A program made the translations under genes and the position numbers. Below are positions 1 to 10,477 of a stretch of 12,988 nucleotides of DNA, in pieces (the first letter of the stretch is position 1; the number at the start of each line of letters is the position of its first letter). Source of the stretch: a virus (taxonomy: Duplodnaviria > Heunggongvirae > Uroviricota > Caudoviricetes); the IMG/VR virus record IMGVR_UViG_2778261465_000007; one strand, given 5' to 3'. The notes beneath the pieces are model-generated. The model had not been told where the DNA came from, ran no database searches, and saw nothing but the letters and a program-made list of their open reading frames with translations.

Positions 1-234
1 ATGAAATCAAAAGACACCCTAAAGTGGTTCCCTGCGCAGCTTCCTGAAGTAAGAATTATCCTAGGGAATGCTGTAGTGGAAGTAGCAAAACAGGGAAGAC
101 CTATCAATACCAGAACATTGCTTGATTACATTGAAGGAAACATAAAGAAAAAATCATGGCTGGATAACAAAGAATTATTACAAACAGCGATATCAGTTCT
201 TAAAGACAACCAAAATTTAAATGGTAAAATGTAA
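1..234 (+). CDS. ynaE: small AT-rich prophage protein, YnaE/YdfK-like (77 aa); ATG sits exactly at the window edge so the true 5' end cannot be confirmed
   Basis: ORF 1..234 with TAA at 232-234; strongly AT-biased codon usage; lies immediately upstream of and co-oriented with pin, as ynaE does beside pinR in Rac. Assignment is from recalled gene order, not from a motif. Confidence 0.45.
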   Translation: MKSKDTLKWFPAQLPEVRIILGNAVVEVAKQGRPINTRTLLDYIEGNIKKKSWLDNKELLQTAISVLKDNQNLNGKM

Positions 235-399
235 TATAATAAACTTACTTTTTTATCATTTTTCCACTTTAACAACATTTTGCTCCACTTTTCCACGACC
301 AAACAACTTGAAATCTGGTTAAAATAACACGCAACACTATTCTTCTTCCTTGAGTCCGCCCGGAACTCGAAAAACAAACCGAGTTAAAGCCATTTTTCA

Positions 400-413
400 C
401 AAAATCGATTTTG
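400..413. promoter_or_regulatory. 14-bp perfect palindrome CAAAATCGATTTTG in the AT-rich 316-bp intergenic region upstream of pin; candidate operator or recombinase-binding site
   Basis: Exact dyad symmetry read directly from the sequence; function unknown. Confidence 0.3.
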
Positions 414-482
414 GGTCTCACCAAAATTACGGGGTTGCATACGCATTCGTTTATTTTCGAACGTGTACATACAAATATGCAC

Positions 483-512
483 AAAAATAATCATAATTAT
501 TTTCTGAGATGC
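483..512 (+). repeat. direct repeat copy 1: AAAAATAATC - 12 nt - TGAGATGC, ending 38 nt upstream of the pin ATG
   Basis: Exact 10-mer (483-492) and exact 8-mer (505-512) shared with copy 2 at 1141-1164. Confidence 0.5.
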
Positions 513-550
513 ATTATGATATGAACACCAATTTCGTATAGAGTCTCACT

Positions 551-1141
551 ATGTCTCGAATTTTTGCTTACTGTCGGATATCAACGCTGGATCAGACCAC
601 CGAAAATCAACGCCGGGAAATCGAAAGTGCAGGTTTTAAAATCAAACCTCAGCAAATAATCGAAGAACACATTAGCGGCTCAGCAGCAACCAGTGAGCGT
701 CCTGGTTTTAACCGGTTGCTTGCTCGCCTGAAATGTGGTGATCAATTGATTGTGACAAAACTGGATCGCCTTGGTTGTAATGCAATGGATATCAGGAAAA
801 CAGTGGAACAACTGACCGAAACAGGTATCAGAGTGCATTGCTTAGCATTGGGTGGCATTGACCTGACCAGTCCAACAGGAAAAATGATGATGCAAGTAAT
901 TTCAGCAGTCGCTGAATTTGAACGAGACCTTTTACTTGAACGCACTCATTCCGGGATAGTAAGAGCCCGCGGCGCAGGGAAACGTTTTGGTCGACCACCT
1001 GTGTTAAATGAAGAACAGAAACAGGTGGTATTCGAACGAATTAAGTCAGGTGTAAGTATAAGTGCCATTGCCCGGGAATTCAAAACCTCGCGGCAAACCA
1101 TTTTAAGAGCCAAAGCAAAACTTCAGACACCTGACATATAA
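551..1141 (+). CDS. pinR: Pin-type serine recombinase / DNA invertase (196 aa)
   Basis: N-terminal catalytic motif YCRISTLDQ (serine nucleophile), resolvase/invertase core (LDRLGCN, GRPP) and C-terminal helix-turn-helix ([18 protein letters not shown]); 196-aa length and sequence match my recollection of PinR/PinQ; convergent with tfa as in Rac. Confidence 0.9.
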
Positions 1142-1164
1142 AAAATAATCTCGGTGTGAGATGC
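1141..1164 (+). repeat. direct repeat copy 2: AAAAATAATC - 6 nt - TGAGATGC, starting at the last base of the pin stop codon; contains inverted repeat ATCTC-GGTGT-GAGAT (1148-1162)
   Basis: Exact 10-mer (1141-1150) and 8-mer (1157-1164) shared with copy 1. Confidence 0.5.
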
Positions 1165-1238
1165 TTTACGTCTTCCAAGCCCCCTTCCTTGCCGTAAATG
1201 GAAAGATACATCTAATTATAGAATTTATATGTTTTACC

Positions 1239-1814
1239 CTACGGCAGTGCTGGCCATTCAATATCCTGTGCAGTTGACGTATCAACACGGTTCAGCAATA
1301 CCCGATACTTTTTCCATGCTTCCAGCAACGAGATTTCTTCCTCCGTTGCAATTTCCAGATCTGCAGCATCCTGAAGCGGCGCAATATGCTCACTGGCTAC
1401 CTGCATCAGGTTGTTTTTTGTTTCTTCCGCCTCCCGGATCCGGAACAGTTTTTCTGCTTCCGTATCCTTCACCCAGGCTGTGCCGTTCCACTTCTGAAAC
1501 TCCCCTTCCGGCGATAACCAGGTAACATTTTCCGGTAACGGACCGAGTTCAGAAATAAATAACGCGTCGCCGGAAGCCACGTCATAAACCGTTTTACCCC
1601 GATGATCTTCAACGAGATGCCACGATGACTCATCACTGTTGAAAACAGCCACGAAGCCAGCCGGAATATCTGGCGGTGCAATATCGGTACTGTTTGCTGG
1701 CAGACCTGTATGAGGCGGAATATATGCATCACCTTCACCAATAAATTCATTAGTTCCGGCCAGCAGATTATAAATTTTTATGGTCCGTGGTTGTTCACTC
1801 ATTCTGAATGCCAT
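1239..1814 (-). CDS. tfaR: tail fibre assembly protein Tfa (191 aa)
   Basis: Translation [24 protein letters not shown]...DIEWPALP is typical of lambdoid Tfa; GAGG Shine-Dalgarno 8 nt upstream; start overlaps the stop of the upstream fibre remnant (TAATG). Confidence 0.85.
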
Positions 1815-1954
1815 TATGCAAGCCTCACAATATAGTTAAATGCGATGTTTTTGACGGTGTTTTCCGCGTTACCAGCAGCGTTAACGGTGATGGTGTGTCC
1901 ATGTGAACCAATCGCAACGGAGTGCGTGTGTGCACCAATAACCATCGCCAAATC
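1814..1954 (-). pseudogene. side tail fibre (Stf) C-terminal remnant, 46 codons, in-frame stop immediately upstream
   Basis: Minus-strand frame reads [46 protein letters not shown] then TAA overlapping the tfa ATG; the HTH...[15 protein letters not shown] ending is the conserved C-terminus of lambdoid side tail fibres; in-frame TAA at 1955-1957 and no upstream fibre coding sequence before the tape measure stop at 2026. Confidence 0.7.
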
Positions 1955-2025
1955 TTACAGTTTTTATCGATGGTTTATTTTCTGTTTTCATTCCATCCTC
2001 TGGTAACCAGTGAAATTCTTCCGTA

Positions 2026-5000
2026 TTAGCCACTTAACATTCCCCCATCACGTCGCATATTTAACAGATTGCCCTGCACCCGCTGATCAACCATCCCCAT
2101 AAGTGCTTTTATTGCCTGAGGGCCAATCTCTCCATTCTGGCCGTCATTTTGAATAGTGATTTGGTATACAGGGGCATAGGTAATATCTCCGCCTCCATTA
2201 CCACTTTTACTATTAATAGCTCTGACACCAAGAGAACCATCGGAAGTTCGTGTTAATGGCATAATGGCTTCCGGACCAGCCTCACCAAAAACACCAGCCC
2301 CTCTTGCAAAAGCAAAAAATTGCGGGGAATCATAAATACCGTTCGAATACGTGTTCAATGACGGAGACTCATAAACACCGCCCTTTGCATTCGGAATAAA
2401 TTTACTAATAGCACTCCCGATAGTTCCTAAAATCCCCCCAGAAGAACTGTTACTAATGCTGTCGAAAATCCCAGTAATTGAAGCCTTTAATGCTATTCGA
2501 CTAAGATCCGAAATCACGGAAGTAGCGAAAGAACGAAAATTTGCCTTGCCTGTCGTGACAAAATCACCCAGCGCATCGGTCATTCCATCAAACATCTGAG
2601 TCGTGGTTGATTTTATCTGCTCACTGATATCCTTAGTGTCATCCAGCCAGTTATTGAATCCCTGGGAGGCACCACTAACCCAGTCTCCTGCCTGAATATC
2701 GAGCTGCTCGTTTTTCTGTCTGACAATTTCTTTTTCTCGTTCCAGAGCATCATTCAGAGCCTGCATTTTCTCCTGAAAAACATGATTTGACATCCCACGG
2801 GATTTATCTGCATAGTCACGTTCAAGTTGCAGACGCTGATTGTTATATTCACGTTCAATCCGCAGTAATTCCTGCTGGCGTTGCTGATTTTTATCGCCAA
2901 CCCCATAACCAGCAATCTGAATATCATACCCCTGTTGACGATTATCAATCGAAGCCTGCAATGAATCACGCCATGCAGCTATTTCGGCGGATTCCTTGAT
3001 TAGCCTGTTATTTTTTTCAATCGCAACATTTTTCTCCATCAACGCGGTTATTTCTTCCCGGTGTAAGAGAAGCGATTTCTGATCCTGGGTTAATTTCGAT
3101 GACGGTCGTGACTCCAGGTCGGCAATCTGCTGACGCCACTTAACCAGTTCCTGTTCAGAGGAACTTAATTTAACGGTTAATTCAGTTTGTGAACTTAGTA
3201 ACGCATTCTGTTGATTCAGATGATCAATCATTCGTTGGGCAGCATCATCCGAATAACCTTTCGCCTTTGGTTGCTTTGGATCTTTATAACGCTCATTTAT
3301 TTGAGCGATAAAATTATTATATTCTTCCTTTGAATACTGACTCTTTAGCTTTTCCAGTTTTGCAAGTTCACTAGCTCTCTGCTGCTCCCGGGTCTGATAT
3401 TGTTTTGAAAAGGCATCTGCTCTCTGTCTGAGTTCAATTCCTTCCTGTTGTCGCTTGTTGTAATCGTTTATTGATGAATTTAGGACGTCCTGAGCAATTT
3501 TTTCTGCTTGAAGTACGCCCAATTGCTGCTTTAATCGTGCCAGCCTTTTATTTTGAGCTCCGCCATCTCCAATGCCACCTAACCCGAAAACTCCGGGTCG
3601 GGTATTTTTTTCTATTTCATCAATTTGACGGAGAACATCTGAGATTTTTTGATCAAGGGAGGCCTCACGGCCAATGTCCAGCATGGAATCCCATGCCCAT
3701 TTTGCGGAGTCTGCGACAGCTTTCCATGCAGTCTCAAGATAACCAAGATTTTCTTTAATCTGGTTGGTGCGCTGGATCATTGAGGATGAGTATGCTTCTG
3801 TCGCAATGCGGGCGGCCTCCTGCTGGTTCCCTTCATCCTGTAGCGCCTTAATCTGGTTATAAGTCGCAATTGTCAGAAAATGGTACTGATCATTAAGTTT
3901 TGATATGGCACTGACAGGATCCTTTGCAATTTCATTGAAGTCATTAACCAGTTGTTCGGTTGATATTCCTGTTACTTCGCTCGTTTTTACTATCGCTGTC
4001 GTCACTTGCTCCAGCGAACTGCTCGCTACCTTTCCCGAACGCACAAGCTGGTTTAATACTGCCGCCGCAGCGCCAGTTGTCGAATCAGCCGCATTCCCGG
4101 CACGTTGAGCTATATCGGCCAATTGCCCGCTGGTTGTCCCCAACTGATTTCCGGTAAGAATAAGAGATTTATTAAATTCGTCCTGCTCCTGAGAGCCTTT
4201 ATAGTAAGCCAGTCCTAAGACCCCAACGGCTGCTGCGGCCAGGGTAAAAGGATTAAGTAATCCCAGCACATAAGAACCTACACCTTTGATCGCCGGGCCA
4301 ATCCCACCGAACATATCTTTTAGCTGGCCGCCCTGCTGCATTAACACCATAAATGGCGACTGACCAGTGGACAACCCAACAACAATATCCGTCATTTGTG
4401 CAGGCAACATGCGCATAGCAAAAGCCGTTTGTTTTGCCGACATTCCGGTTTTGCTTAATTGTGATTGAGTAACCTCAAGCTCACTCCGCATAGCACGAAG
4501 TTTTCCAGAAAGCTCCTCATACATTTCAGGAGAAAGCATCCCCTTAGCTTTTGCTTCATTGAGCTGTTTCTGTTGTTCTACCAGACGATTAAAAGCAGTT
4601 CCGACAGGATCAAGTTGAGCAATCAGACGTTGCAAAGCAACAACCTGTTCATCATGCGCTTTTGCTGCTTCTCGCTCTGCCTGAGCCTCTCCGGTAAGCT
4701 CTCGCCGTGTTTCCTGTATTTTTCGGCTATAATTCTCAAACTGAGAACCATTTATTTTCCCGGATGCAAACGCAGCATTAAGTTCATCATGCTGTTGTTC
4801 AAGATTTCTTAGCGCCGCAGCCAGAGGGTCGATCTTGTCCAGCATTCTTTGAAAGGCCTGAGCCTGCGCTTCCTGCTGGGCGGCAGCAAGTTTTCCGGCC
4901 TTCTCGGCTTCTCTCTGCGCTTGCGCAACCCCGCTCAATTCCTCTGTGGTTTCATTAAGTTTACGGACAAGAAATTCATATTCTTCTTTATCAATAAGCC

Positions 5001-5259
5001 CTTTATCGAAAAATTTCTTTAATTCAGAATAGCGTCGACCGACAGTATCAATTGCGGCACCAACTGGATCAATAGCTGCTTTTAATTTTGCGAGCGCGTT
5101 CTTCTCATCTTCTGTTGCCTTAGTCACTTTCCCTGCGCTATTTGCAGCAGTTTCCCCAGCCTGCGTCATTTTGACTAATGAGGAGGTCAGATTGTCAGCA
5201 TTATTTTTCGCTCCAGTGCTATCAATAATTATTGCGAGACGCGAGGTTTGCTCTGCCAT
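2026..5259 (-). CDS. tail tape measure protein, lambda gpH family (1077 aa)
   Basis: Long coiled-coil-rich ORF with three N-terminal ~75-aa repeats, a central hydrophobic segment and the lambda-H-type C-terminal region ([22 protein letters not shown]); AGGAG 9 nt upstream of the ATG; directly follows the G/G-T chaperone genes. Confidence 0.85.
4450..5094 (-). repeat. three diverged tandem ~75-aa (about 225-nt) repeats in the N-terminal part of the tape measure protein
   Basis: Protein-level periodicity: [18 protein letters not shown] (aa 63-80), [18 protein letters not shown] (aa 143-160), [18 protein letters not shown] (aa 216-233), each followed by a ...ELSG/ELTG/ELEV segment. Confidence 0.5.
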
Positions 5260-5279
5260 TTATTAAAACTCCTGACAAC

Positions 5280-5304
5280 AAAAAAACCACCGCGAAGTGG
5301 GTTT
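5280..5304 (-). terminator. weak hairpin (CCAC-loop-GUGG) followed by U7 on the minus-strand transcript, about 20 nt upstream of the tape measure ATG; possible attenuator
   Basis: Minus-strand RNA AAACCCACUUCGCGGUGGUUUUUUU; the stem is only 4-5 bp, so weak. Confidence 0.25.
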
Positions 5305-5424
5305 CAGGCGACATAATAGTAGATATAGCGATTACGAGGCCACGCAATGCTTTTCTCCAGGAGCATCATCGATTTAATTAAAGACACCATCACATCTCTG
5401 TAACAGAGTGTACGTAATTAACAA

Positions 5425-6194
5425 CTACACACACTGCTCCTGAAAATACTGGTCATCCAGTGCAAAGATCACTGCTTCAAATTCATCGCGCTCAATCAAT
5501 ACCGGATGAGTGGCTAAATATTCATTTATCTCTGTCAGAGATAAAGGCAAAGGCACCCCAGCCATTCCAGCATAACGTCGGGCACGGGATATTACCGAAT
5601 AGGCGTACAACAACTCCTTAAGCACCGGGTCTATTTCTGGTTCCGGTATCGGTGGCAACCTGAGTTTTTCTCGCTTCCATCTTGCCTTTTCCCCCCTTTC
5701 TCCCCCGAACTCCGATAACCACCGCTGGGCAGCTATGGCTTTTTTATCGTATCCTGCTTCTGCTGCTCTTTACCCTGGGCGATGCTGGCTGCTTCTGCAA
5801 GGATCTGCCAGTACAACTCTGGATTCTGCTTAAGCAGCGCGATCCCTCGTTCTGCCGTATATTCCAGTGCAACCTCAACACCATTAACCAGTTCACCAAC
5901 CCCTTTCCAGTCTTTCAGCAGATAACGAGCGGCATTATCAATGAGTAAATCATCAACAGAATCCACCTCGGAAACCTTTGAAATATCAAACTCCTTCGTT
6001 CCGACGTGCAAACTGGCATCCATTTTCTCAATGTGGCGACGGATTAATGCATTACGGGAGCGATACTGATCGTTATCGCTGCTTGCCACCAACAGTTTTA
6101 ACCCGTCTACAGGTTTTAAGTCCTTCATTGGCGTAAACCAGCGTTCTCCACCAATGATAATTTTCTGATTAAGAATAAACATCCATAACCTCAT
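5425..6194 (-). CDS. tail assembly chaperone G-T fusion produced by programmed -1 ribosomal frameshift
   Basis: The frame of ORF 5425..5658 stays open upstream to overlap the 3' end of G; slippery heptamer A-AAA-AAG sits 2 codons before the G stop; position between major tail gene and tape measure gene matches the conserved G/GT arrangement. Confidence 0.55.
5733..6194 (-). CDS. tail assembly chaperone G (153 aa; alternative start at Met5, 6182)
   Basis: ORF ending ...QDTIKKP-TAG directly upstream of the tape measure gene; GGGGGA (or GAGG for Met5) Shine-Dalgarno; carries the frameshift site. Confidence 0.7.
   Translation of the reverse strand: MRLWMFILNQKIIIGGERWFTPMKDLKPVDGLKLLVASSDNDQYRSRNALIRRHIEKMDASLHVGTKEFDISKVSEVDSVDDLLIDNAARYLLKDWKGVGELVNGVEVALEYTAERGIALLKQNPELYWQILAEAASIAQGKEQQKQDTIKKP
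5739..5745 (-). other. -1 programmed ribosomal frameshift slippery site A-AAA-AAG (minus-strand mRNA)
   Basis: mRNA reads ...GAU ACG AUA AAA AAG CCA UAG; after a -1 slip the frame continues as AIAAQRWLSEFGG... into the T segment ending at 5425. Confidence 0.6.
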
Positions 6195-6242
6195 TCAATG
6201 CGTCCCCCTGTAGGGCAGTACCACAGGAGAAATAACGGAAAA

Positions 6243-7205
6243 TCAACTAATCGCCTCAGCACTGGCTTTTGCGATCACGGCAGCCGGGGAATTTTTTTTT
6301 CTGGTTATCGTAGGTGCTTCATCTGCTGCGGTAATGCTCAATTGAACCTGGATAATGTCGCTATTACCCCCATCAGGCCATTCACCTGACACCTGAACCT
6401 TCGGGAAACTGAAAGTGTATGCCCCCTCTCCATTCGAAAGCGTGAAGCTGAACGGAACTGTTTCTCCAGTCAGTGTTTTACTCCAGATTTCCCACGCGGC
6501 TTTAGACCATGAAAGCGTCACCGTACCGGACGGTGTAAAAGTAGTCGGAATATTTGCTCCTGCATAAGGCGAGCCAGTCCCGATACAACGCTGTGTCTGG
6601 AGTTTGTTATCGAACTGAATATCAAAACTGTCGATACAAAAACCGTTACCTCCGGCAACACCATTCAGGCTTACTGCTGAAACCTCCTTAAACGAATAAC
6701 GTAGCTTTCCTGCACTATCCACAGGTTCGCCTTTGATAAAATTCGTATCATCGGCCTTTGATTCCCAGTCCAGTCCGGCAAAGGTTACGGTCGCTGTAAT
6801 ATCGCCGTCGTTAGGGATCTGCATTTTCCATGAGCCAACCTGCGCTCCTCTGACGACAGAGGCAATTCCGACATCGGACGCATAGGTCGCCAGAGAAAAT
6901 GTTATTCGCTCATTCCCCATTGTCAGAGAATCGCCTGACCATTCCGCGCCGAAACAGGATGCAAGAAAATCATCATGTTGACCCCAGCGAAATTTGGTAC
7001 CAACATCACCGCCGACATCCACAGTGCCAGGCGTCGCCCCCTGAGCCATCCGGGAGCCACCAATCTCATTATTTTCGCCTTTATTCTGGGTGGGTTTTAC
7101 TTCCCAGCTTGTGCGTTTTAATAAACTCCAGTCACCACTTGCTGGCGTAGTGCCTGCAACCGTCTCCCGGATAAATGCCGAGATAACCTTTGCACCTGAA
7201 CTCAC
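6243..7205 (-). CDS. major tail (tube) protein, 320 aa, with a putative Ig-like C-terminal extension (inferred from size, about 75 aa longer than lambda gpV); GTG start
   Basis: Gene immediately upstream of the G/GT chaperones; GTG preceded by AGGAGG at a 5-nt spacing. Confidence 0.65.
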   Translation of the reverse strand: MSSGAKVISAFIRETVAGTTPASGDWSLLKRTSWEVKPTQNKGENNEIGGSRMAQGATPGTVDVGGDVGTKFRWGQHDDFLASCFGAEWSGDSLTMGNERITFSLATYASDVGIASVVRGAQVGSWKMQIPNDGDITATVTFAGLDWESKADDTNFIKGEPVDSAGKLRYSFKEVSAVSLNGVAGGNGFCIDSFDIQFDNKLQTQRCIGTGSPYAGANIPTTFTPSGTVTLSWSKAAWEIWSKTLTGETVPFSFTLSNGEGAYTFSFPKVQVSGEWPDGGNSDIIQVQLSITAADEAPTITRKKNSPAAVIAKASAEAIS

Positions 7206-7231
7206 AGGAGCCTCCTATGTCATTAATTGCG

Positions 7232-7624
7232 CTAGAGCGCGCGATATGGAATTTGAAGATTAAGCTGGAACCAGCCATTCTTTTCGCCAACGGCTATTGA
7301 GGAAACAGCCTGGTAACTGAGACGATCGTCATCCTGAAACTCAAACAGTTCCCGCAATTTATCGGCTGTCTCAGTAATGAGTTTTGAACCAGAACCTGCG
7401 GGGACAAATAACTGAATAATGATTATCCCCGTGCGATAAACAACCGGCCCCGCGCCAATTTCATTAACTCCAGCCTGCCCGGGAATATTACTTAACCGCG
7501 CCCAGATTAACTTACCGGAAGGATCGAACGTTGGCCCGTTCGGATACAATACGTCTTTTCCATCAATAATCGTCTGTGCCGTCATTCTGGAAATAACCGT
7601 ATTTCTGATTTCAGTAAACTTCAT
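7232..7624 (-). CDS. head-tail joining / tail terminator-like protein (130 aa)
   Basis: Small ORF between the HK97-gp10-like gene and the major tail gene; ATGA start/stop overlap with the upstream gene; function from position only. Confidence 0.45.
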   Translation of the reverse strand: MKFTEIRNTVISRMTAQTIIDGKDVLYPNGPTFDPSGKLIWARLSNIPGQAGVNEIGAGPVVYRTGIIIIQLFVPAGSGSKLITETADKLRELFEFQDDDRLSYQAVSSIAVGEKNGWFQLNLQIPYRAL

Positions 7625-8001
7625 TTGTAAGCCTGTAAAACACCATGAAAAGCGTTGGCATACACGCCAGTTGGCGCTTGTTGTGAATGACCGTTTTCAA
7701 GAGCCTCTGCATAAGGAAGGTTATTCTGGATATAAATAACCCCGTAATTTGCAGCTTTCGAAATAACCCCGATCCCACGCTGAACAGCAATCGTACCGTT
7801 CGGATCCACGTTATCAGATATACCAAAATCGGGATGCTGTAACGACACCAGGTTGTTATTTCTGAAACGTCCGGTATCAACCGGAGCAGCAATATCAATA
7901 GCAGTAAGAATCTGCATAGCGATGTAGCGAATCTTCAGCCCTACATCTTCCTCAATCATCCCGGCAAATATTGACGGTTCTATATCCCATGCCTTTGCCA
8001 T
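7621..8001 (-). CDS. tail completion protein, HK97 gp10-like (126 aa)
   Basis: VDTGRFRNN motif resembles the DTG-x-LR signature of the HK97 gp10 family; start directly follows the upstream stop (TAA-ATG). Confidence 0.5.
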   Translation of the reverse strand: MAKAWDIEPSIFAGMIEEDVGLKIRYIAMQILTAIDIAAPVDTGRFRNNNLVSLQHPDFGISDNVDPNGTIAVQRGIGVISKAANYGVIYIQNNLPYAEALENGHSQQAPTGVYANAFHGVLQAYK

Positions 8002-8385
8002 TTACGCTCTCCTTAACTGGATAGAGTAAACTGATGCGGAAGGATCTACACTTGCTGTAATTACCTCGTATCGTTGTAACTGCCTTGATACAGGATCATA
8101 AATCTCAATAATATGGTCGACAGCTGGTTTATCCGTAACCTCGCATACCAGAGCGGTTAATTTAAGGTCACCATGCAAAATATTAATCCCATCAATTCTG
8201 CCCAGCTTATAACGTGTCAACACGCCTCGCCCGGTATAGATTGCGGTGGATTCGCCGCCAGTTTCCGTCACAGGATCCCAGTGCCGGTGCGTAACGTAAG
8301 AACCAGAAAAATCACTCACGGCGTCCGCTAAATCCTCATCAAAAGCAGCGGCAACCTCTGACTGAATCTCTTCACGAAGCCCCAT
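8002..8385 (-). CDS. head-tail joining (head closure/adaptor) protein (127 aa)
   Basis: Position in the coupled head-tail cluster; TAATG overlap with the upstream gene; no diagnostic motif recognised. Confidence 0.45.
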   Translation of the reverse strand: MGLREEIQSEVAAAFDEDLADAVSDFSGSYVTHRHWDPVTETGGESTAIYTGRGVLTRYKLGRIDGINILHGDLKLTALVCEVTDKPAVDHIIEIYDPVSRQLQRYEVITASVDPSASVYSIQLRRA

Positions 8386-8997: not shown

Positions 8998-9092
8998 AAT
9001 GTTTAACCAAGAATCAGACAACCATGTGCCGGCTTCACTGATGAAACACCCCATGCCAGTCCAACTTCATAGCGCACCTGGCGATACTGACG

Positions 9093-10142
9093 TTACAGTG
9101 CAATCTGGAACGTAATCCCTGAAATCGGGTCCGTAACATTCATTACATCATCAGCATTATCGCCACCTTCCGGCATTGCCGGAGTACGGGATGCCAGCAG
9201 AAACGCGTTGCGATCAAACGCCATATTTGCAGTAAAGGCCCCAACAACTGTGATGGCAGTATCATCGGCCAGATCCTGACGCAGTCCGGGCGCTGCAAGA
9301 GTAATCAGATTGCTGGTCGCTGCTGCCACAACATACTGATTCGGATCACCAGCGAACGTAACAATCTGACCTGCAGAAATACTCCCCGAACCAGTATCAA
9401 TGGAAATAAGAACATCGCCTTCTTTTTTCTCTCCATTCACGAGATAACCAGTTGCAGCAACCTTTGGCGCTCGTTTCACACCTGCCGAACTGTGAATATT
9501 GAATCCCTCCAGACGCCCCAACACGCCCTCACGCAGTAGCTGTTCAGTGCCGGATTCATTCACTTTAAACAATACAGACTGTTTTCCGCGCAAATTAGCA
9601 ATGGCAGTGGAGCCAAGCACCATCTGCAGATCGGTTGTCGGTGCGCCGTTATCCTCCAGAACCTGACGAGCCAGAGCAGCATCAGAAAGATCATCTTTAA
9701 CACCAAACGGCGTTGTCCCTGCGGTTCCCACGGCGCGGGAAGCACCGAAATACAACGCACCAAGATCAGCCTCAACCTCGTTTGCAAGGGCGCGAAAAGC
9801 CTGCTTGAACTGATCAGCCAGAATGGTGTTGTAAGTCCCTGAAGGGCCAAGAGCCAGTTGTTCTTCACCATTCCATTTAACCGGTGCCATTTTGGATTTA
9901 GTAATTTTTACATCAACAGTGCCAATATTTTGATCACCGGTATTCGGAGCTGACGGCCCCGGTACGATATCTTCGGTTTTCGCCTCAGGCGCAACTGGCG
10001 CGGTTACCGTCTGATCTTTTGCTGCGGCGTCAGCTTTTGCGTTTTTTGCTACCGCAGGGATAAAACCTACCTGCTCACGGGATACAACATCCAGGGCGGT
10101 ATAAATAGTCGGGATCAACCCGGTCAGGGTATTTCCAGCCAT
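9093..10142 (-). CDS. putative major capsid protein (349 aa from ATG 10142; the ORF-track N-terminal extension to 10235 is rejected)
   Basis: First large gene of the virion block, directly upstream of the head-tail joining genes; AAGGAA Shine-Dalgarno 8 nt upstream of MAGNTLTGL...; assignment from position and size, not a recognised motif. Confidence 0.55.
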   Translation of the reverse strand: MAGNTLTGLIPTIYTALDVVSREQVGFIPAVAKNAKADAAAKDQTVTAPVAPEAKTEDIVPGPSAPNTGDQNIGTVDVKITKSKMAPVKWNGEEQLALGPSGTYNTILADQFKQAFRALANEVEADLGALYFGASRAVGTAGTTPFGVKDDLSDAALARQVLEDNGAPTTDLQMVLGSTAIANLRGKQSVLFKVNESGTEQLLREGVLGRLEGFNIHSSAGVKRAPKVAATGYLVNGEKKEGDVLISIDTGSGSISAGQIVTFAGDPNQYVVAAATSNLITLAAPGLRQDLADDTAITVVGAFTANMAFDRNAFLLASRTPAMPEGGDNADDVMNVTDPISGITFQIAL

Positions 10143-10240: not shown

Positions 10241-10477
10241 TTAATCAACGATTGTGACCGGAACAGAATCCATTTTGAGCATTTCAGCCGCCATAACACG
10301 ACCGTGACCCGCAATAATTTCGCCCTTTTCGTCAATCAGCACCGGATTAGTCCAGCCGAATTGCTTAATACTTTCTACCAGTTGTGCCACCTGCTCAGTA
10401 CTGTGCGTCCTGGCGTTGTGCGCATACGGTGACAATTCTTGTAATGGGCGATAGACTATCTTTAATTTCTCGCTCAT
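10241..10477 (-). CDS. ynaK: ParB-like nuclease-domain protein (78 aa), probably a truncated domain
   Basis: ParB/Srx N-terminal-domain signature (PYAHNARTHS ... IIAGHGR); sits between trkG and the structural genes as ynaK does in Rac. Confidence 0.55.
   Translation of the reverse strand: MSEKLKIVYRPLQELSPYAHNARTHSTEQVAQLVESIKQFGWTNPVLIDEKGEIIAGHGRVMAAEMLKMDSVPVTIVD

Follow-up and report, generated by a model that had tools for sequence, protein, structure and literature searches.

Judging from its sequence, the window (the whole stretch of DNA analysed, 12,988 bp) appears to be the late region of the Rac prophage of Escherichia coli, with genes on the minus strand. The Rac markers trkG, ynaK, ydaY, pinR, tfaR and ynaE/ydfK are all present in Rac order, and these common parts are 99.6-99.9% identical to Rac of K-12 MG1655 (b1345-b1375), which is the same prophage. 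This agrees with the assignment made in the initial annotation. The window begins at ydfK and finishes in rrrD, both of which lie inside the prophage. In the nearest relatives, VE-T9, strain 190 and K-12, Rac is located at the ttcA / uspF-ompN locus. The features relevant to this study are listed in Table 1.

Table 1. Features of the window (coordinates are those of the window; L002 is a locus of the VE-T9 genome)
Feature	Position	Strand	Remarks
ydfK/ynaE-type small gene, right end of Rac	1-234	+	100% identical to VE-T9 L002 14802-15035, annotated as ydfK
pinR, serine invertase, intact, 196 aa	551-1141	+	Pfam Resolvase and HTH_7; DNA 100% identical to VE-T9 pinR
tfaR, tail fibre assembly, intact, 191 aa	1239-1814	-	PF02413 Caudo_TAP, E 3.6e-43; DNA 100% identical to VE-T9 tfaR
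stfR 3' remnant, last 41 codons and TAA	1814-1940	-	identity to stfR ends at 1940
Chimeric 50-codon ORF	1881-2033	-	M residues 1-32 and 18 out-of-frame codons of stf DNA
Deletion junction 1	1938-1940		3-bp microhomology ATA, shared by the two parental ends; sequence across the joint: GTGTGTGCACCAATAACCATCGCCAAATCT
Gene M 5' remnant, codons 1-32 (lambda-M-type minor tail protein)	1938-2033	-	GTG start at 2033
Quasi-palindrome, native M sequence	1940-1975		inverted repeat; breakpoint at the base of the stem
Tape measure gene, intact, 1077 aa	2026-5259	-	Pfam TMP_2, TMP_4, Tape_meas_lam_C
P22-type major capsid gene	9003-10142	-	nonsense codon at 9093-9095
Deletion junction 2	10255-10257		3-bp microhomology TGA; 7,418 bp removed

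tfaR and pinR, previously described as intact, are indeed full-length, and the tape measure stop had been placed correctly at 2026-2028; the tape measure protein aligns with that of strain 190 over its full length at 99.7% identity. The ydfK/ynaE-type gene gave no match in a Pfam search. An Rfam match to IS009 falls inside tfaR (1273-1471). The ORF at 1229-1525 on the plus strand was considered as an inverted tfa' remnant and rejected on reading, since its sequence resembles the opposite strand of tfa. The capsid gene is interrupted by a TAT to TAA change that turns Tyr350 into a stop; the capsid gene of VE-T9 carries a stop at the same codon and is labelled “internal stop” in RefSeq.

Two gene remnants lie between tfaR and the tape measure gene. 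The first is the 3' end of stfR, whose translation (IGAHTHSV...IVRLA) corresponds to residues 1092-1132 of the 1132-aa StfR of VE-T9. It is devoid of the N-terminal domain, the shaft and the collar that are present in the full protein. Its TAA (1814-1816) shares its last base, 1814, with the A of the tfa ATG. Identity to stfR breaks off at the same position in comparisons with VE-T9, K-12 and phages such as mEp460. The second remnant is the 5' end of gene M, with an 8-nt overlap between its GTG start and the tape measure stop. In a tblastn search residues 1-32 of the strain 190 M protein (112 aa) align with 2033-1938 at 100% identity, and in intact relatives RefSeq has a 339-nt “phage tail protein” gene that begins at the equivalent GTG. 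The remnant matches positions 1-28 of the 108 positions of the PF05939 profile with 24 bits, below the cutoff of 39, compared with 109 bits for the intact M gene of VE-T9; the window contains a fragment of 32 codons here and not a gene of the gpM type.

The initial annotation had the tape measure gene adjoin the stf remnant directly and missed the M remnant between them. It had also reported an in-frame TAA at 1955-1957 followed by 46 open codons with a stop that overlaps the tfa ATG. The arrangement exists (the open codons occupy 1954-1817), and the last 41 codons are the C-terminus of stf, identical to VE-T9 StfR. The upper five codons and the TAA are M-gene DNA read in another frame, and the position of this stop in M-derived sequence is coincidental. 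Four ORF products could be encoded across the scar (50, 36, 45 and 43 aa), none of which is on record according to an exact-product look-up. In a promoter and terminator scan of 1100-2400, no signal relevant to the scar exceeded what shuffled sequence would give. We suggest that 1881-2033 and 1814-1954 be flagged in annotations as remnants of M and stfR rather than as small proteins.

The Rac prophage of VE-T9 (NZ_AP027963.1) represents the state before the deletion. Its genes have the same order and orientation as in the window, and it differs from the window by just six SNPs in the 12,988 retained bases. According to the annotation it keeps the tape measure gene, M, L, K, I, J, lom, stfR, tfaR and pinR. 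The 9,714-bp M-stfR interval and the 7,418-bp scaffold-ynaK interval are both still present in VE-T9, whereas the window has neither. Comparison of the two establishes both the parental arrangement and the breakpoints. Positions 1-1940 of the window correspond to VE-T9 L002 14802-16741 (100% identity) and positions 1938-8223 to L002 26456-32741 (99.97%); both blocks are colinear with VE-T9 and in the same orientation. The missing interval, L002 16742-26455, is annotated with M, L, K (C40 peptidase), I, J, lom and stfR. The losses at junction 1 comprise L, K, I, J, most of M, lom and all of stf but the last 41 codons, which bears out the earlier view that tail tip, lom and fibre shaft had been deleted while tfa and pin were kept.

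The position of the junction was determined by comparing three sequences: the window, the stf side of VE-T9 and its M side. It had been expected within 1955-2025; in fact bases 1941-2033 are native sequence and the breakpoint falls at 1938-1940. Alignment with VE-T9 also provided the microhomology that had been proposed as a check, namely the common ATA. The boundary at 1940 on the stf/tfa side is seen independently in comparisons with 4,831 E. coli genomes and phage records, and the boundary at 1938 on the tape measure/M side with 720 E. coli genomes and phage records. The quasi-palindrome at the M-side breakpoint, folded as ssDNA, has an energy of -6.8 kcal/mol (z = -4.15; none of 200 shuffles folds as well). 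Junction 1 is absent from 5,426 complete E. coli genomes, where a record had to cover at least 80% of a 1.4-kb or a 201-bp query spanning the joint, and an exact 30-mer across the joint has no match in GTDB species representatives or metagenome contigs.

A second deletion lies 8.3 kb from the first. At junction 2 the interval 9125-16542 of VE-T9 locus L006 is absent from the window. With it were lost the genes for scaffold, minor head protein, portal, TerL and TerS and two hypothetical genes; the ParB-like ynaK is cut after its first 74 codons and the rest is gone. We considered similarity between the ends of this deletion as a cause of recurrent losses of ~7.3-7.4 kb and rejected it: the only match is 22 bp long (86% identity; score 29, shuffle maximum 27), and it does not lie at any of the breakpoints.

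We interpret 1814-2033 as the scar of a single illegitimate, microhomology-mediated deletion of 9,714 bp in an already defective Rac prophage, and estimate the probability of this reading at about 0.88. Junction 1 has colinear flanks, an overlap within the range of 1-9 bp and no long repeat, IS element or recombinase site. The absence of a Pin site, a long repeat or an IS element from the ends is what identifies the deletion as illegitimate and mediated by microhomology. The stop at Tyr350 is common to the window and VE-T9, therefore the capsid gene was inactivated before the deletions and the ancestor was already defective. The second deletion in the same prophage bears the same signature. 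Taken alone, a 3-bp microhomology is short and would be expected by chance in about 5% of cases, and in sequence the results of slippage and of end joining would look alike; by our calculation, an overlap of at least 3 bp has a probability of ~0.05 at one random junction and ~0.003 at two. In E. coli, ligA-dependent end joining gives rise to microhomology deletions as large as 40 kb, as summarized in PMC4872102, citing Chayot et al. 2010. The present deletion is likewise of kilobase scale, here with an overlap of 3 bp and no long homology or recombinase site.

The course of events would be as follows. In an ancestor nearly identical to VE-T9 Rac, with the whole set of genes from the tape measure gene through M, L, K, I, J, lom, stfR and tfaR to pinR, short-homology recombination at the common ATA would have joined M codon 32/33 to stfR codon 1091/1092. 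The likely route is a template switch during replication or, following a break, end joining independent of RecA; a DNA hairpin whose start coincides with the breakpoint on the M side may have aided the deletion. The join is out of frame and leaves the 50-codon chimeric M' ORF and a promoterless stf tail of 41 codons, and we expect no function of either. Because M, L, K, I and J are gone, no tail tip can form, and the genes that remain for tape measure, tube and connector are unable to give rise to a tail. The survival of tfaR and pinR is presumably explained by their position outside the deleted interval and by the recent date of the event, rather than by any demonstrated selection.

It is very unlikely that the junction is an assembly artefact, i.e., a false connection in the contig between two segments of an intact Rac prophage. 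The junction is unique to the window in every collection searched, hence the allele is without independent confirmation, and no called gene product across the joint is on record. However, assemblers collapse at repeats, and the ends share just 3 bp with no direct repeat. On either side of the joint the sequence is colinear with the intact prophage, another clean deletion of the same style is found in the window, and comparable independent deletions are known in finished genomes. Recombination driven by homology, performed by RecA or by the relaxed RecET/Red-type system of Rac on diverged repeats or on a pair of lambdoid prophages, appears highly improbable. Such exchange is known: Rac and other defective prophages swap tail-fibre regions with lambdoid phages via Rad52-like recombinases (PMC3945230). 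The stf/tfa/pin module is also multi-copy, with a median of two places per E. coli genome. Yet only 3 bp are common at the joint. The stf and M sides resemble each other over no extended stretch, the ends carry no members of a repeat family, and the parental ends in VE-T9 have no common stretch of 12 bp or more. No second donor is needed, since both flanks are nearly identical to one prophage, the Rac of VE-T9.

An intact pinR is located 800 bp away, and the tail-fibre genes of Mu, P1 and e14 are targets of invertases of the Pin family, which could speak for a site-specific deletion by PinR, or else by an IS element, at cryptic sites. We consider such an event extremely unlikely. No paired 26-bp sites with a 2-bp core were found: the sequence that we take to be the 26-bp Pin/Gin/Hin crossover consensus, TTNTCNNAAACCNNGGTTTNNGANAA, gave no match at three mismatches or fewer when searched for in the window and in VE-T9 locus L002 (32.7 kb), although a very divergent site could be missed. 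A direct-repeat search through the whole deleted interval of VE-T9 found none at the ends, and the joint shows neither IS sequence nor target duplication. Moreover, the breakpoint is 41 codons from the end of stf, inside the His-x-His repeats and not at a constant/variable boundary. Lambdoid tails are mosaic, and a short protein could in principle follow the tape measure gene natively, with no deletion at all; this has virtually no chance of being correct. The ORF after the tape measure gene consists of M codons 1-32 and then of stf DNA in the wrong frame, where it soon meets a stop, and the flanks match the intact prophage at 99.95-100% identity. The colinearity with VE-T9, the ATA joint and the M/stf chimera already refute such an architecture.

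Under the preferred reading, a deletion at the ATA microhomology, the join may also have created a translatable small gene, which we regard as a remote prospect. A frame of 43 codons would start at the ATG 1945-1943 in M-derived DNA. It enters the His-x-His tip of Stf (...RLA) and ends in a TAATG overlap with tfaR. If this frame were translated, tfaR would stay translationally coupled, and the block from the tape measure gene to the connector genes, tfaR and pinR might be selected and not merely uneroded.

Taken as an ordinary deletion scar, the locus matters little beyond annotation. It is at the same time an exact example of prophage erosion dated by its context: a capsid nonsense mutation came first, and then two kilobase-scale deletions at 3-bp microhomologies. 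The nearly identical VE-T9 reference makes it a clean case for work on deletion bias and on how prophages decay.

In different lineages of E. coli, Rac has followed several paths of decay, independent of one another. K-12 Rac, mapped in the coordinates of VE-T9 L006 and of the strain 190 locus L001, likewise has two internal deletions in the late region, but with 2-bp overlaps. One runs from ynaK to ydaY (11,560 bp lost, from just past the ynaK breakpoint through the tail tube gene); the other runs from tape measure codon ~312 to lom codon ~67. The breakpoints differ from those of the window; the independent decay of the two prophages suggested in the initial annotation holds. K-12 Rac keeps lomR::IS5 and full-length stfR, while the window has lost lom and stf and keeps the genes from capsid through the full tape measure gene. 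The decay had also been proposed to be complementary, which holds only in part: terminase, portal, scaffold and L-K-I-J are missing from both remnants, therefore together they would not rebuild a phage. The K-12 prophage Qin (ydfK-pinQ-tfaQ-stfQ-nohA) carries the same right-end module as the window, with tfa and pin intact, and there too an stf 3' remnant directly adjoins an upstream late-gene remnant. Qin keeps 320 stf codons next to a remnant of the terminase small-subunit gene, whereas the window keeps 41 codons next to the M remnant; the Qin copy is 99.7% identical to positions 1200-1940 of the window.

The window is part of the Rac prophage of E. coli. It carries the Rac genes ydfK/ynaE, pinR, tfaR, ydaY, a remnant of ynaK, trkG and lysis genes, and the parts that it shares with the Rac prophage of K-12 are 99.6-99.9% identical. 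A published survey of 638 genomes detected Rac at its locus in 69% of them and described the K-12 copy as incomplete (PMC6379469). The Rac prophage of E. coli strain VE-T9 (NZ_AP027963.1) differs from the window at six positions over all 12,988 retained. Its gene order is ydfK, pinR, tfaR, stfR (1132 aa), lom, J, I, K, L, M, tape measure gene. Every late gene of the window lies on the minus strand.

Features round the stf-side scar and at the second junction (window coordinates)
Feature	Position	Strand	Evidence or remark
Serine invertase ORF (pinR)	551-1141	+	Pfam Resolvase plus HTH_7
Tail fibre assembly gene tfa (tfaR)	1239-1814	-	Caudo_TAP 3.6e-43
Open stretch, 46 codons, between tfa and tape measure gene	1954-1817	-	Sequence
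Chimeric M'-stf ORF	ends at stop 1881-1883	-	50 codons
5' remnant of lambda-M-type minor tail gene	1941-2033	-	First 32 codons; native sequence downstream of tape measure gene
Tape measure gene, lambda-H-type	2026-5259	-	1077 codons; Pfam TMP_2 4.8e-81, TMP_4, Tape_meas_lam_C
Junction 2	10255-10257		Flanks: capsid gene 9003-10142, ynaK remnant 10247-10477; 3-bp TGA overlap

The initial annotation described a 46-codon remnant of the side tail fibre gene stf beside the tape measure gene, with a deletion junction within 1955-2025. The feature is real and was recognised correctly in outline, but its location was wrong. When window 1200-2600 was searched against complete E. coli genomes (n=5,426), the tfa/stf side was matched in 4,831 of them, with all matches listed ending at window 1940, and at least 80% of the query was covered in none of the 5,426. 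Window 1930-3200 matched 720 E. coli genomes, in which a "phage tail protein" gene comes after the tape measure gene; among the matches listed, those of full identity begin at window 1938. Phage records repeat both boundaries (1940 and 1938).

Both halves sit in the one Rac prophage of VE-T9. Positions 14802-16741 of its locus L002 equal window 1-1940 (100% identity), and positions 26456-32741 are 99.97% identical to window 1938-8223. In a base-by-base three-way comparison of the window with the stf and M sides of VE-T9, the window agrees with the stf side as far as ...CACCAATA and with the M side from ATAACCATCG..., and both parental ends carry the trinucleotide ATA. This places the true junction at 1938-1940, 15 to 87 bp off the interval proposed initially. 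Missing from the window are 9,714 bp of VE-T9 (L002 16742-26455).

The 46-codon open stretch, the TAA at 1955-1957 that bounds it on the upper side and its own stop (TAA 1814-1816), which shares its last base with the A of the tfa ATG, are all present in the sequence. As an stf remnant it stands only in part: in the stf frame, only its last 41 residues equal the StfR C-terminus, whereas the upper five codons and the TAA above them are M DNA in another reading frame. This TAA is a coincidental stop. From its GTG start at 2033, M overlaps the end of the tape measure gene by 8 nt, an arrangement that RefSeq also annotates in intact relatives. By tblastn, the 112-aa M protein aligns over its residues 1-32 to 2033-1938 with 100% identity, and the fragment matches profile positions 1-28 of PF05939. 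Past residue 32 (…VRFGDGY) the frame continues out of frame in stf DNA. The stf frame contains an ATG (1945-1943) from M-derived DNA; the ORF that starts there has 43 codons and terminates at a TAATG overlap with tfaR. By inspection, the sequence upstream of this ORF has no good Shine-Dalgarno motif; tfaR is preceded, at 9 nt, by a GAGG of its own. Expression of the 43-codon ORF is extremely improbable, and none of the scar ORFs is expected to have a function. No record was found of ORF products spanning the joint.

At junction 2, sequence lying a short way upstream of the capsid gene gives way to the ParB-like gene ynaK. The 7,418 bp absent here (VE-T9 L006 9125-16542) include scaffold, minor head protein, portal, TerL, TerS, two hypothetical genes and ynaK after its first 74 codons. 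Independent deletions of 7.31-7.37 kb in three finished-genome classes cover almost the same interval as the 7.42 kb of the window. We observed ynaK as a recurrent breakpoint in the window, K-12, BL21-type strains, ECCWS199, CP66-6, A10 and other genomes, a recurrence that is partly ascertainment because the query spanned the junction. In each of them homology breaks off at a base of its own, within some 300 bp of the gene (VE-T9 L006 16237-16543, which corresponds to window 10255 onward; also L003, L004, L005 and L008). Similarity of the end regions was rejected as the cause of recurrent deletion, as a 22-bp match of 86% lies at none of the breakpoints. The recurrence may reflect a hot spot or selection for keeping trkG.

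The exact M'-'stf joint was found in none of the 5,426 complete E. coli genomes, GTDB representative genomes or metagenome contigs. The allele is either private or rare, or else its source genome lies outside the searched collections. Misassembly could also create such a joint, but there is no repeat at junction 1 and the window holds a second scar of similar type, which makes this origin very unlikely. The scar is an ordinary product of prophage decay; what is new is only an uncatalogued Rac deletion allele with an unusually clean pre-deletion reference.

A 26-bp crossover consensus of the Gin/Hin/Pin type had no match with up to 3 mismatches in the window and VE-T9. Neither a direct repeat family with copies at both ends of the first deletion nor an IS sequence at junction 1 was found. 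This leaves illegitimate recombination at microhomology. By our calculation, a random joint has an overlap of at least 3 bp with a chance of about 5%, and both joints with about 0.3%. The native 5' part of gene M contains a quasi-palindrome (1940-1975) whose base coincides exactly with the M-side breakpoint; as single-stranded DNA it folds at -6.8 kcal/mol (z = -4.15), and 0 of 200 shuffles fold as well. Replication pausing and template switching would be consistent with this hairpin. Alternatively, the deletion may have arisen by ligA-dependent end joining at microhomology, which in E. coli makes deletions of up to 40 kb (PMC4872102, citing Chayot et al. 2010).

The initial suggestion of an independent decay path was right, as K-12 Rac has two deletions, both different from those of the window. 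One joins ynaK to ydaY, with a loss of 11,560 bp (VE-T9 coordinates) from a point just past the ynaK breakpoint up to and including the tail tube gene. The other joins tape measure codon ~312 to lom codon ~67 and removes what remains of the tape measure gene together with M, L, K, I and J. The decay is "complementary", as was also proposed, only for capsid-to-tape-measure versus lom/stf; the packaging module and L-J are missing from both strains. A classic precedent, in which tfa and pin stay intact beside a 3' remnant of stf, is K-12 Qin (pinQ-tfaQ-stfQ remnant-nohA). Further independent deletions of Rac occur in other finished genomes, such as ECCWS199, CP66-6 and A10. In ECCWS199 (L004 12817-13061) the small gene that neighbours the capsid gene lies almost immediately beside a full-length stf; all connector, tube, tape measure, tip and lom genes are lost, and stf, tfa and pin are retained.

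In lambda, tube polymerisation is initiated by a tip complex in which J, I, L, K and M join the tape measure protein. Since the window has lost L, K, I, J and most of M, its remaining tail genes would be unable to build a tail. Terminase, portal and scaffold are also gone and the capsid gene is truncated, so that no particles would form either. The P22-type capsid gene has a nonsense codon 350 (TAT to TAA, Tyr350 to stop, window 9093-9095), 30 codons short of the natural end. The window and VE-T9 have this stop in common; therefore their shared ancestor was already unable to make capsids before both deletions. The tfaR, pinR, tape measure and connector genes are intact in the window, which is uninformative on selection because the divergence from VE-T9 is so small.

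VE-T9 Rac is also defective otherwise: in place of the whole early region there is an IS1 beside a truncated integrase (L006 19855-21190), and J is annotated as frameshifted (L002 20748-24160). The window ends in rrrD, and both lesions fall outside what it shows. A full-length match (220.9 bits) to the candidate E. coli small RNA IS009 (Rfam RF02111) occupies window 1273-1471 (-), inside the coding sequence of tfaR and on its strand.
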